Positions 15,304 through 48,686 of a stretch of DNA of 64,000 nucleotides are shown piece after piece. Both the position numbers and the translations under genes were made by a program. Each line of letters starts with the position of its first letter. The stretch's first letter is position 1. The stretch is from the NCBI RefSeq assembly GCF_053078305.1, contig NZ_CP166879.1; one strand, written 5' to 3'. The notes below the pieces were generated by a model. The model searched no databases. It had not been told where the DNA came from and saw nothing but the letters and a program-made list of their open reading frames with translations.

Positions 15304-16176
15304 ATGAATCCGTCTGATGCCATTGAGGCAATTGAAAAACCGCTCTCCTCCCTGCCTTACTCGCTTTCCCGTCACATCCTGGAACATCTGCGCAAACTCA
15401 CCCGTCACGAACCAGTGATTGGCATTATGGGTAAAAGCGGGGCCGGTAAATCCTCACTCTGTAATGCACTGTTTCAGGGGGAGGTCACCCCGGTCAGTGA
15501 TGTTCACACCGGCACCCGGGAAGTACGGCGCTTCCGTCTGAGTGGCCACGGTCACAGCATGGTTATCACTGACCTGCCCGGGGTGGGCGAGAGCCGGGAC
15601 AGGGATGCAGAGTATGAGGCCCTGTACCGTGACATTCTGCCTGAACTGGACCTGGTACTGTGGCTGATTAAAGCCGATGACCGTGCCCTGTCTGTGGATG
15701 AGTATTTCTGGCGACACATCCTGCACCGGGGACATCAGCGGGTACTGTTTGTGGTGACGCAGGCCGACAAAACGGAGCCCTGCCATGAATGGGATATGGC
15801 CGGTATTCAGCCTTCTCCTGCACAGGCACAGAATATTCGCGAAAAAACGGAGGCGGTATTCCGTCTGTTCCGGCCCGTACATCCGGTTGTGGCCGTATCG
15901 GCCCGCACCGGCTGGGAACTGGATACGCTGGTCAGTGCGCTCATGACAGCGCTTCCCGACCATGCCGCCAGTCCCCTGATGACCCGACTGCAGGACGAGC
16001 TGCGCACGGAATCTGTCCGGTCTCAGGCCCGTGAACAGTTTACCGGTGCGGTGGACCGGATATTTGACACGGCGGAGAGCGTCTGTATTGCCTCTGTTGC
16101 ACGCACGGTTCTGCGTGCCGTCCGTGACTCGGTGGTCTCTGTTGCCCGCGCTGTATGGAACTGGATTTTCTTCTGA
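15304..16176 (+). CDS. yeeP: YeeP/YfjP/YkfA-family GTPase
   Basis: 290 aa; P-loop GIMGKSGAGKSS; directly upstream of flu as in CP4-44. Confidence 0.8.
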   Translation: MNPSDAIEAIEKPLSSLPYSLSRHILEHLRKLTRHEPVIGIMGKSGAGKSSLCNALFQGEVTPVSDVHTGTREVRRFRLSGHGHSMVITDLPGVGESRDRDAEYEALYRDILPELDLVLWLIKADDRALSVDEYFWRHILHRGHQRVLFVVTQADKTEPCHEWDMAGIQPSPAQAQNIREKTEAVFRLFRPVHPVVAVSARTGWELDTLVSALMTALPDHAASPLMTRLQDELRTESVRSQAREQFTGAVDRIFDTAESVCIASVARTVLRAVRDSVVSVARAVWNWIFF

Positions 16177-16295
16177 ACACTCTGCCAGGGGAAATGCCTG
16201 ATTACATTGCGTTAACCAACTGAAAACATGACACAAACCCCTCATCCCCCTCCTGTTTCTCTTGCGTGACCGCTCTGCTGTCAATAGAATAAAAC

Positions 16296-16331
16296 GATCG
16301 ATAAAACAGGTATCGATCGTTACTATCGATC
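16296..16331 (+). promoter_or_regulatory. Ag43 phase-variation switch: three closely spaced GATC (Dam) sites in the OxyR-binding region
   Basis: GATC at 16296, 16315 and 16328, about 220-250 bp upstream of the flu start. Confidence 0.7.
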
Positions 16332-16548
16332 GTTTATAGTGGTTAATGGTCTGCGAAAAGGCAGCTGAATCTCTTCATCATGCAGAACGGAATTGCACAC
16401 AACGGACTGATACTTCTCTGGCGGATGAGAGAGGGGAAGCATTTATGTCCGGGAAAAACCACTTTATCTGACCATGCTGTTTTGTACCTGCCGGTATCCA
16501 CATTTGTGGGTACCGGCTTTTTTATTCACCCTCTGTAAGGAAAAGCTG

Positions 16549-19500
16549 ATGAAACGACATCTGAACACCAGCTACAGGCTGGTATGGAATCACATTACGG
16601 GCACCCTGGTGGTGGCCTCCGAACTGGCCCGCTCACGGGGAAAACGCGCCGGTGTGGCGGTTGCGCTGTCTCTTGCTGCTGTCACATCAGTCCCGGCACT
16701 GGCTGCTGACACGGTTGTACAGGCGGGAGAAACCGTGAACGACGGAACACTGACAAATCATGACAACCAGATTGTCTTCGGTACGGCCAACGGAATGACC
16801 ATCAGTACCGGGCTGGAACTGGGGCCGGACAGTGAAGAAAACACCGGTGGGCAATGGATACAGAATGGCGGGATAGCCGGAAACACCACTGTCACCACAA
16901 ATGGTCGTCAGGTCGTGCTGGAGGGGGGAACAGCCAGTGATACGGTTATTCGTGACGGCGGGGGACAGAGCCTGAACGGGCTGGCGGTGAACACCACGCT
17001 GAATAACAGAGGCGAGCAGTGGGTTCATGAGGGCGGGGTTGCCACCGGTACAATTATCAACCGCGACGGTTACCAGAGCGTTAAAAGTGGCGGGCTGGCA
17101 ACAGGAACCATCATCAACACCGGCGCAGAAGGCGGCCCGGATTCTGACAACTCGTACACGGGTCAGAAGGTCCAGGGAACAGCAGAATCCACCACCATCA
17201 ACAAAAATGGACGGCAGATTATCTTATTTTCCGGGATAGCCCGTGACACTCTCATTTACGCAGGTGGTGACCAGTCGGTACACGGAAGGGCCCTGAATAC
17301 CACACTGAATGGCGGTTACCAGTATGTGCACAAGGACGGACTTGCGCTGAACACGGTAATTAACGAGGGGGGCTGGCAGGTTGTTAAGGCAGGTGGTGCT
17401 GTCGGTAACACCACCATAAATCAGAACGGTGAACTGAGGGTACATGCCGGCGGGGAAGCCACTGCAGTCACCCAGAACACGGGCGGTGCACTGGTTACCA
17501 GTACGGCTGCAACCGTTACCGGCATAAACCGCCTTGGAGCATTCTCGGTTGTGGAGGGTAAAGCTGATAATGTCGTACTGGAAAATGGCGGACGCCTGGA
17601 TGTGCTGACCGGACACACAGCCACTAATACCCGCGTGGATGATGGCGGAACGCTGGATGTCCGCAACGGTGGTACCGCCACCACCGTATCCATGGGAAAT
17701 GGCGGTGTACTGCTGGCCGATTCCGGTGCCGCTGTCAGTGGTACACGGAGCGACGGAAAGGCATTCAGTATCGGAGGCGGTCAGGCGGATGCCCTGATGC
17801 TGGAAAAAGGCAGTTCATTCACGCTGAACGTCGGTGATACGGCCACGGATACCACGGTAAATGGCGGACTGTTCACCGCCAGGGGCGGCACACTGGCGGG
17901 CACCACCACGCTGAATAACGGCGCCATACTTACCCTTTCCGGGAAGACGGTGAACAACAATACCCTGACCATCCGTGAAGGCGATGCACTCCTGCAGGGA
18001 GGCTCTCTCACCGGTAACGGCAGCGTGGAAAAATCAGGAAGTGGCACACTCACTGTCAGCAACACCACACTCACCCAGAAAGCCGTCAACCTGAATGAAG
18101 GCACGCTGACGCTGAACGACAGTACCGTCACCACGGATGTCATTGCTCAGCGCGGTACAGCCCTGAAGCTGACCGGCAGCACTGTGCTGAACGGTGCCAT
18201 TGACCCCACGAATGTCACTCTCGCCTCCGGTGCCACCTGGAATATCCCTGATAACGCCACGGTGCAGTCGGTGGTGGATGACCTCAGCCATGCCGGACAG
18301 ATTCATTTCACCTCCACCCGCACAGGGAAGTTCGTACCGGCAACCCTGAAAGTGAAAAACCTGAACGGGCAGAATGGCACCATCAGCCTGCGTGTACGCC
18401 CGGATATGGCACAGAGCAATGCTGACAGACTGGTCATTGACGGCGGCAGGGCAACCGGAAAAACCATCCTGAACCTGGTGAACGCCGGCAACAGTGCGTC
18501 GGGGCTGGCGACCAGCGGTAAGGGTATTCAGGTGGTGGAAGCCATTAACGGTGCCACCACGGAGGAAGGGGCCTTTGTCCAGGGGAACAGGCTGCAGGCC
18601 GGGGCCTTTAACTACTCCCTCAACCGGGACAGTGATGAGAGCTGGTATCTGCGCAGTGAAAATGCTTATCGTGCAGAAGTCCCCCTGTATGCCTCCATGC
18701 TGACACAGGCAATGGACTATGACCGGATTCTGGCAGGCTCCCGCAGCCATCAGACCGGTGTAAATGGTGAAAACAACAGCGTCCGTCTCAGCATTCAGGG
18801 CGGCCATCTCGGTCACGATAACAACGGCGGTATTGTCCGTGGGGCCACGCCGGAAAGCAGCGGCAGCTATGGCTTCGTCCGTCTTGAGGGTGACCTGCTC
18901 AGAACAGAGGTCGCCGGTATGTCTCTGACGACAGGGGTGTATGGTGCTGCAGGCCATTCTTCCGTTGATGTTAAGGATGATGACAGCTCCCGTGCCGGCA
19001 CGGTCCGGGATGATGCCGGCAGCCTGGGCGGATACCTGAATCTGATACACAACGCCTCCGGACTGTGGGCTGACATTGTGGCCCAGGGAACCCGCCACAG
19101 CATGAAAGCCTCATCGGACAATCACGACTTCCGCGCACGGGGCCGGGGCTGGCTGGGCTCACTGGAAACCGGTCTGCCCTTCAGTATCACTGACAACCTG
19201 ATGCTGGAGCCACAACTGCAGTACACCTGGCAGGGACTTTCCCTGGATGACGGTAAGGACAACGCCGGTTATGTGAAGTTCGGGCATGGCAGTGCACAAC
19301 ATGTGCGTGCCGGATTTCGTCTGGGCAGCCACAACGATATGAACTTTGGTAAAGGCACCTCATCCCGTGACACCCTGCGCGGCAGTGCCAAACACAGTGT
19401 GCGTGAACTGCCGGTGAACTGGTGGGTACAGCCTTCTGTTATCCGCACCTTCAGTTCCCGGGGGGACATGAGCATGGGTACAGCCGCAGCCGGCAGTAAC

Positions 19501-47264: not shown

Positions 47265-48686
47265 TCAGGCTTTCACATCACTCACTGCACCGACCGGAAT
47301 ATCAGCATGAACAGGCTCGTGCGGTACTTTGCGATATTTATCCAGCAGATGAATCTGGATCCTGCGCAGCGTGTCGCCATTGAGGCGATAGAAACGGAAG
47401 TAGAGAATCAGCGTTACCATGAAAAACAGAGTCGGTAGAGCAATCATAATAAACTGCATACCTAATAGGGCTTGCGTAGACTGTTCAACATTCGGTACAT
47501 AGCCAATCATCCCTAACACAACCGCAATGAAAAAAGCCGCAAAGGCTGAACCGCCCTTCACCACCATAGTCTGCACGGAGTAAGCGATGCTTTCACAGCG
47601 TACGTGCAGTTTATATTCACCGTAATCAACGGTATCTGCCACCATGATGACCTGTAATACCCAGAAAAGCGCCGTTCCCACATTCAGCAAGATACCCGCA
47701 ATCACAATGAGGACGACGTTGTGATAGCTCATTAATGCCATTAACAGGAGAACACCACAGCTTAACACCGGAAGAATAGATGCTCCGGCCCATAAAATGC
47801 GTCGGGATAATGATTTAACTAAGCGTGGGAAGAATACTAACGTCACCAGGTTAGCAGCTCCCGCATACGACAGATAATAGGGGAACAAATCCGCATCACC
47901 GATAACATATGAGAAATAATAGATAGCAAAGCCGGTAATAATGTTGCTGGCTACATTATAAGCAAGAGCCATACCCAAGAGGCATGAAAGCTGATCGTTT
48001 TTATAAATAAGCGCAACGATGGCTTTAAGTGTCAGATGGCTTCCTTCAGCAGACGGTTGATTGTCTGACGAAAAGACTTCATGCACATTGCGCAGAGTGA
48101 TGATGGTTGAAACAATAAAAAAGGCGATCAGTACCAGTGTGAACATCTGAAAGCCAAATCCCCGATCGCCACCGCCGACATAATTAACAAATGGTAGCGT
48201 CACACCTGCCGTAACAAAGCCCGCCAGACTGGCAAAAAAACGCGGATAAGGAACCAGTTGTTCACGCTCACGTTTATCGAGCGTGATGGTTGGAACCAGC
48301 GACCAGAAGGGAATATCCATAATGGTGTAAGTCATGCCCCAGAGGATGTAGGTCACGCAAACAAAGACAATCTGAGTAGTACCTTCAAACAGATGCGCAC
48401 TAAAGAGGAGAAATAAGATTACAGAGTTTGCCAACGTACCGATCAGGATCCAGGGTTTGAACTTACCCCATCGCGATCGCGTAGCATTTACAATCCATCC
48501 CATAATCGGATCGTTAATAGCATCCCAGATCCTCGCCACCAGAAACAAAGTACCGACCAAACCCACAGACAGCCCGACGACATCGGTGTAGTAATACATG
48601 AGGTACATATACACAATGCCGATCGCAAAATCCTTCCCGAACGCTCCAAATCCATAACTGAGTTTTGTAGTCATTGAAATGCTCAT
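47265..48686 (-). CDS. melB: Melibiose:cation symporter
   Basis: 473 aa from [40 protein letters not shown]... Confidence 0.9.

Follow-up and report, generated by a model that had tools for sequence, protein, structure and literature searches.

Phase variation of Ag43 is a textbook epigenetic switch of E. coli, controlled by Dam methylation and OxyR. Populations thereby become mixtures of ON and OFF cells for autoaggregation and biofilm formation. The locus studied here raises the question whether its copy of the Ag43 gene, flu (agn43), is under the same control. We analysed a stretch of 64,000 nucleotides (in the following called the window), in which a preliminary description had noticed three GATC sites upstream of flu and had taken them for the intact Dam/OxyR switch of Ag43. 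Judging from the sequence, the region 16262-16548 is very probably the regulatory region of an intact Ag43 gene (flu/agn43) with the canonical phase-variation switch.

In the established system OxyR represses, methylation of the three GATC sites blocks OxyR and OxyR in turn blocks Dam, and agn43 switches at about 1e-3 per generation (PMC2909390, PMC3764049, PMC4872104, PMC13337833). Both agn43 allele groups of EAEC 042 have promoters with three GATC sites at similar spacing, and phase variation was inferred there (PMC2808357). A literature search for direct experiments on the operator type found in the window returned none, only K-12-like cases. The reading given here belongs to what is already known, because the system is a textbook one and the inference from three GATC sites is routine in the literature.

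The flu gene lies in a CP4-44-like island with the order YfjI, GTPase, agn43, yeeR, IrmA, DUF905, DUF932, antirestriction, yeeS, yeeT and cbeA/cbtA, and over 12 kb the locus is 99.5% identical to E. coli C8. The genes next to the regulatory region are the following.

15304-16176, plus strand: GTPase gene, an intact homologue of the K-12 pseudogene yeeP (290 aa; Pfam MMR_HSR1, 8.8e-15)
16549-19671, plus strand: flu/agn43, an intact coding sequence for 1040 aa; the annotation of E. coli C8 names it agn43
19792-22308, 3′ of flu: yeeR-type gene (838 aa), whose product matches K-12 YeeR in its N-terminal residues

The encoded Flu protein is 89% identical to K-12 Flu from end to end and has a complete set of Pfam domains (ESPR, AIDA repeats, AC_1 (autochaperone) and Autotransporter beta-domain). 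A yeeP-type GTPase gene upstream and yeeR downstream are neighbours shared with K-12. Both are intact in the window, whereas in K-12 yeeP is a pseudogene and yeeR appears truncated. The GTPase is called "GTPase family protein" in E. coli C8, and the 3′ end of its gene aligns with K-12 yeeP. No Pfam family matched the 838-aa yeeR-type product; over residues 1-507 it shares 99% identity with K-12 YeeR (510 aa), which looks like a truncated form of the longer protein. Neither dam nor oxyR lies within the window. Of 5426 complete E. coli genomes, 5425 have dam and 5425 have oxyR, and in view of these counts and of the 99.5% identity to E. coli C8 the host almost certainly has both genes.

From the stop codon of the GTPase gene (16176) to the start codon of flu (16549) there is a gap of 372 bp (16177-16548). 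A string search of the window placed the three GATC sites inside it, with a total span of 36 bp. The preliminary description had put them at 16296, 16315 and 16328, within about 36 bp of each other in the yeeP-flu intergenic region; these positions proved exact, and so did the placement in this gap.

16296-16299, plus strand: GATC-I, with the putative transcription start (+1) at its G, taken from the 5′ end of K-12 isrC
16315-16318, plus strand: GATC-II, at +20
16328-16331, plus strand: GATC-III, at +33

CGATCG surrounds every one of the three sites and TATCGATCGTT surrounds two of them. The frame GATC-N15-GATC-N9-GATC occurs a single time in the window, and there is only one copy of the flu-type operator. 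GATC-I and GATC-II are joined by an inverted repeat of 11 bp (AACGATCGATA ... TATCGATCGTT, 16293-16321), which is perfect in the window and imperfect in K-12.

How much does the cluster itself say about a switch? The window contains 211 GATC sites against 254 expected from shuffles, and the flu triple is the tightest among them. With uniform placement, a triple this tight or tighter appeared in 63% of simulated 64 kb windows, and therefore clustering alone is not significant. We rejected it as evidence, and here the preliminary description, which had argued from the clustering, was weak in its argument although its reading as a switch stood. The same 63% of random placements would speak for a chance cluster or a non-functional relic, in which the sites have no regulatory role at this locus. 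What goes beyond chance is the frame: it is unique in the window, with about 0.002 exact matches expected per window by an analytic estimate, it is embedded in CGATCG, it matches the frame of K-12 and it is retained in 112 of 120 sequences (see below). The next triple of the window (48441, 48447 and 48475; span 38 bp, 48441-48478) has another spacing, is without the ATCGATCG context and looks like chance.

For comparison with the K-12 flu regulatory region, a check proposed in the preliminary description, we set 16296/16315/16328 of the window against 1818/1837/1850 of K-12 MG1655 (locus L001) in gapless register. In both, the three sites lie at 0/+19/+32 from the 5′ base of the leader, and no base differs between -13 and +8. 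We discarded a MAFFT alignment with K-12 in which a 13 bp gap within the GATC box gave the impression that the window had no counterpart of K-12's GATC-III, whereas the gapless register shows identical spacing. The leader terminator, the Shine-Dalgarno region, the start of the signal peptide and the consensus positions of both OxyR half-sites predicted below are shared as well. In contrast, the stretch +9..+15 between the GATC sites, the sequence from +37 onward and most of the leader are unrelated or highly diverged. Identity amounts to 42/58 across -16..+42 and 66/120 across -45..+75. The leader of the window is about 33 nt longer than that of K-12 (intergenic distances of 372 bp and 327 bp, respectively), and the base following GATC-I is G in the window and in most alleles but A in K-12.

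The three-GATC frame and the YfjI-GTPase-agn43 island context are also found at agn43a (c3655) and agn43b (c1273) of CFT073. The operators of these two genes differ from that of the window in their K-12-like spacers, with 43-44 of 58 footprint bases matching. According to Blow et al., the six GATC sites 5′ of these two genes carry no methylation on either strand (PMC4752239), which agrees with the mutual exclusion of OxyR binding and methylation known from K-12. A spacing exactly as in K-12 and CFT073 argues against a chance cluster.

The gapless alignment with K-12 also yielded a candidate promoter.

16262-16267, plus strand: -35 hexamer TTGCGT, inferred from the gapless K-12 alignment, 17 bp 5′ of the -10 hexamer
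16268-16284, plus strand: promoter spacer, a hypervariable patch
16285-16290, plus strand: -10 hexamer TAGAAT, inside the block -13 to +8

The -35 hexamer differs from that of K-12 (TTGTCC), yet it is near-invariant among alleles of the window type (pi = 0.006). The block -13 to +8 containing the -10 hexamer, which is the same as in K-12, is invariant or nearly so among 70 distinct operators. A generic promoter scan called no promoter at the flu regulatory region because the -35 hexamer is a weak match to the consensus; we did not take this empty result as evidence that a promoter is absent. The 5′ end of K-12 isrC in RefSeq is the G homologous to the G of GATC-I at 16296, and the isrC annotation in K-12 spans from this G to the T-run of the terminator just 5′ of flu. 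Wallecha et al. 2002 reportedly mapped the start of agn43 to the G of GATC-I. A sigma-70 promoter that would drive the full-length Ag43-family gene thus appears to have its start among the GATC sites, with the position of the start transferred from K-12.

We searched for OxyR sites with the dimer consensus ATAGnTnnnAnCTAT; PMC2909390 prints a slightly different form, which we took as a typographical error. The search gave a pair of predicted half-sites with a summed score of 16/20, 32 bp apart from start to start.

16284-16298, no strand assigned: predicted OxyR half-site 1, ATAGAATAAAACGAT, with 8/10 consensus positions and the same sequence in K-12
16316-16330, no strand assigned: predicted OxyR half-site 2, ATCGTTACTATCGAT, with 8/10 consensus positions

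Half-site 1 overlaps the -10 hexamer, +1 and GATC-I, while GATC-II and GATC-III, 13 bp apart, mark the two ends of half-site 2. The K-12 flu operator also scores 16/20 at identical positions, and all consensus positions of both half-sites are shared. As a positive control we scored the classical oxyR-oxyS operator, which reached the same total of 16/20 with 8/10 for each half-site against ATAGnTnnnAnCTAT; it differs in its half-site spacing of 22 bp instead of 32 bp, and it has no GATC sites and no methylation control. The OxyR consensus is low in information. Lone half-site matches of at least 8/10 numbered 23 in the window against about 31 in shuffles and are not significant, so that we rejected them as evidence and regard only the paired score with its control as informative. 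The flu pair is the best of about 64,000 positions in the window, and a score of 16 was reached anywhere in 6.5% of shuffled windows. That the best OxyR pair of the window lies on top of the GATC sites is a further point against a chance cluster or relic.

We also considered a register of +17..+31 for half-site 2, which likewise scores 8/10, and rejected it, since +28 and +29, which are consensus positions in that register, belong to the columns with the highest variability. The register +21..+35 was favoured because the variation spares its consensus positions. The spacing of 32 rather than 22 between the half-sites is our own reading and would fit an extended binding mode of reduced OxyR. 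Such a mode has been mentioned for gtr (PMC2909390). Overall, the DNA of the window very likely contains an OxyR site that covers the GATC sites, as predicted in silico. On agn43 of K-12, the footprint of OxyR(C199S) is said to extend over -16..+42 (Wallecha et al. 2002). By gapless alignment, we take 16280-16337 to be the homologous region of the window.

Are these positions under constraint in natural populations? As search anchor we used 47 nt in the leader terminator and retrieved 120 metagenomic copies. The anchor lies about 170 bp from the GATC box, and therefore the search has no bias towards intact GATC sites. The 118 metagenomic copies with enough upstream sequence were analysed together with the window and K-12, giving 120 sequences. 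All three GATC sites at 19/13 spacing were present in 112 of these 120 independent sequences, whereas GATC-II was lost in five, GATC-I in three and GATC-III in none. The losses of GATC-II are point changes to AATC or TATC (metagenomic loci L050, L062, L114, L126 and L158) and those of GATC-I point changes to GATG or AATC (L103, L141 and L060). These eight alleles may have altered or locked switching. Around GATC-I most alleles read GATCGAT, and the GATCAAT of K-12 is the minority form.

The -45..+75 region occurred in 70 distinct operators, which fall into two types, that of the window and that of K-12, with few mosaics. By leader length, 95 of the 120 sequences belong to the window type. Mosaic alleles combine a K-type promoter with a window-type operator or a window-type promoter with a K-type operator. 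Their junctions lie in the invariant block -13 to +8 and therefore point to recombination inside the regulatory region. In complete E. coli genomes, the intergenic region was matched in 4017 of 5426, at up to 7 places per genome and with 6408 copies in total, and in 3447 of 4019 matching genome records a copy covers at least 80% of the query. NZ_CP062811 and E. coli C8 have this intergenic region without any difference.

Diversity was calculated from 60-78 distinct window-type alleles. It is pi = 0.006 at the GATC bases, 0.005 for -10..+8 and 0.000 for +30..+36, compared with 0.25 at the neighbouring non-contact bases +25..+29, so that the GATC bases are about 40 times less diverse. Within half-site 2 the variable columns are the "n" positions 5, 7, 8 and 9 of the consensus (+25, +27, +28 and +29) and, weakly, position 6, whereas no variant occurs at the consensus A (+30) or in CGAT (+32..+35). 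Purifying selection on the operator is thus strong at precisely those bases that Dam and OxyR are expected to contact. A chance cluster or relic can point to the loss of one GATC site in 8 of the 120 copies, but the frame is kept in the other 112, the GATC bases are about 40 times less diverse than adjacent bases, and promoter, leader and gene are intact. This alternative is already contradicted by the conservation data, and we give it next to no credence. The reading of the three sites as the Ag43 Dam/OxyR switch, first made in the preliminary description, is supported by homology, by the calibrated prediction of the OxyR site and by this population-level footprint.

Two short patches stand out from the conserved surroundings. 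The first is the promoter spacer 16268-16284 (17 bp; pi = 0.21-0.22), the second lies at 16320-16324 (+25..+29) in the interval between GATC-II and GATC-III and has a pi of about 0.25 with up to 3-4 alleles per column. Natural haplotypes at +25..+29 include TTACT, TTGCT, CTGAT and TCACC. The diversity of both patches exceeds that of the remaining leader about 20-fold, and invariant blocks surround them. Third codon positions in the first 100 codons of flu (pi = 0.08) are 2.5-3 times less diverse than the patches. In the simplest reading, no constraint acts on the patches, which vary among old paralogues that recombine with one another, and the leader RNA beside them is under constraint. Another explanation, which we consider quite improbable, is that diversifying selection or a raised local mutation rate beside unmethylated GATC sites shapes the patches, that they tune promoter strength or switching, and that the kinetics of the window type differ from those of K-12. 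If this were true, the patches could tune ON/OFF rates between alleles and between paralogous copies.

Downstream of the operator we identified two further elements between the transcription start and flu.

16296-16530, plus strand: flu leader RNA (IsrC / Rfam IS102 homologue), from a match to RF00124 and K-12 isrC at the homologous place
16490-16523, plus strand: intrinsic terminator, from a terminator scan, the Rfam structure and the fold

The match to RF00124 extends over 16294-16530, covers model positions 1-206 of 206 and scores 74.6 bits against a gathering score of 46. The terminator consists of a GC-rich 12 bp stem (16490-16517) followed by T6 (16518-16523), ends 25 nt before the ATG of flu and differs from that of K-12 in one loop base. 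A search of 298 Gb of contigs with a 17-mer from the terminator gave only chance matches in unrelated phyla, the pattern being too short for conclusions on taxonomic range. It has been reported that flu expression is controlled by antitermination at IsrC (PMC5389530).

The leader body of 131 nt (16356-16486) is less diverse than the flanking coding sequence, with pi = 0.012, which is about 7 times below the third codon positions of flu (0.08). It is largely unalignable with the K-12-type leader, and the sequences suggest two deeply diverged leader families, each internally constrained. A 52-codon ORF with an ATG start (16380-16538) includes the terminator hairpin and ends 10 nt short of the start codon of flu. 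No clear Shine-Dalgarno sequence precedes it, the homologous ATG in K-12 opens a short ORF that ends before the terminator, and the ORF of the window is probably non-coding.

The leader offers another explanation for the conservation of the GATC palindromes. They might be kept mainly as an RNA hairpin at the 5′ end of the leader, for instance for transcript stability, and not as targets of Dam and OxyR. The IS102 consensus has a 9 bp hairpin formed by the palindromes of GATC-II and GATC-III with the loop at +25..+31, the predicted fold of the window leader pairs the GATC palindromes too, and the variable bases +25..+29 are explained equally well as loop bases. However, we found no compensatory changes in the stem; changes at +19, +20 and +37 are single-sided, and the fold of the whole leader is ordinary (z = -1.7). 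RNA structure cannot account for GATC-I and the invariant positions -13 to -1, which are located at the start or 5′ of it, and in K-12 the effect depends on DNA methylation and OxyR (PMC2909390, PMC4872104, PMC13337833). Moreover, roles in RNA and DNA are not mutually exclusive. An explanation by the RNA hairpin in place of Dam and OxyR is therefore very unlikely in our view, and we retain the reading as a Dam/OxyR operator.

The window contains, in register, all elements of the agn43 switch of K-12 that sequence analysis can test. We observed directly which elements are there, how they are placed and conserved, and that leader and gene are intact.

In the mechanism that we propose for this copy, a sigma-70 promoter (-35 TTGCGT, -10 TAGAAT) would direct transcription from the G of GATC-I (16296). 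An OxyR tetramer would occupy the half-sites 16284-16298 and 16316-16330 and so cover the -10/+1 region and all GATC sites. In the OFF state, OxyR would be bound to unmethylated GATC sites, block transcription and shield the sites from Dam, making the state heritable. In the ON state, Dam would methylate the GATC sites first after passage of the replication fork, OxyR would no longer bind, flu would be transcribed, and this state would be heritable as well. The transcripts would then cross the IsrC/IS102 leader of about 250 nt, with the intrinsic terminator just 5′ of the ATG as a putative second layer of control. Work on K-12 is the source for the start site, for the binding of OxyR and its sensitivity to methylation, and for switching, all of which would apply here by analogy. 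Homology and conservation together argue strongly that the flu copy of the window is phase variable.

The proposed arrangement can be compared with gtr of phage P22 and opvAB in Salmonella, which also use Dam and OxyR. In gtr, pairs of GATC sites 13 bp apart lie at the ends of one OxyR half-site, like GATC-II and GATC-III at flu (PMC2909390). In contrast to flu, gtr has four GATC sites in two pairs and three half-sites, located upstream of the transcription start, and OxyR acts there as activator or repressor depending on the half-site pair occupied, whereas agn43 has a single repressor site over +1 (PMC2909390).

Could a locus with all these elements still behave differently from K-12? In this alternative, the operator type of the window would be biased towards one state or effectively fixed in ON or OFF, or its switching rates would be far from those of K-12. 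Proposed causes are the different +9..+15 spacer, the different -35 hexamer and the perfect inverted repeat of 11 bp that connects the first two GATC sites, AACGATCGATA / TATCGATCGTT, which K-12 is without. In its favour, 16 of the 58 footprint positions differ from K-12, sequence changes in cis can alter the stability of the switch (PMC4872104), and the literature search found no direct data on the window type. Against it, the consensus positions of the half-sites and the three GATC sites are identical to K-12, and the window type is the majority form (95 of 120 sequences; 3447 of 4019 records). The strong purifying selection on the GATC sites (pi = 0.006) is hard to reconcile with a locked switch. 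We consider such deviating behaviour unlikely and prefer the reading as a canonical switch.

With an intact switch, the flu copy of this strain is expected to behave like other copies, which involves no new biology. The result can be used for annotation and for reading expression or methylome data of the strain. Nearly all mechanistic work has been done on the K-12 operator, whereas the version found in the window predominates in nature and is the most common natural type.
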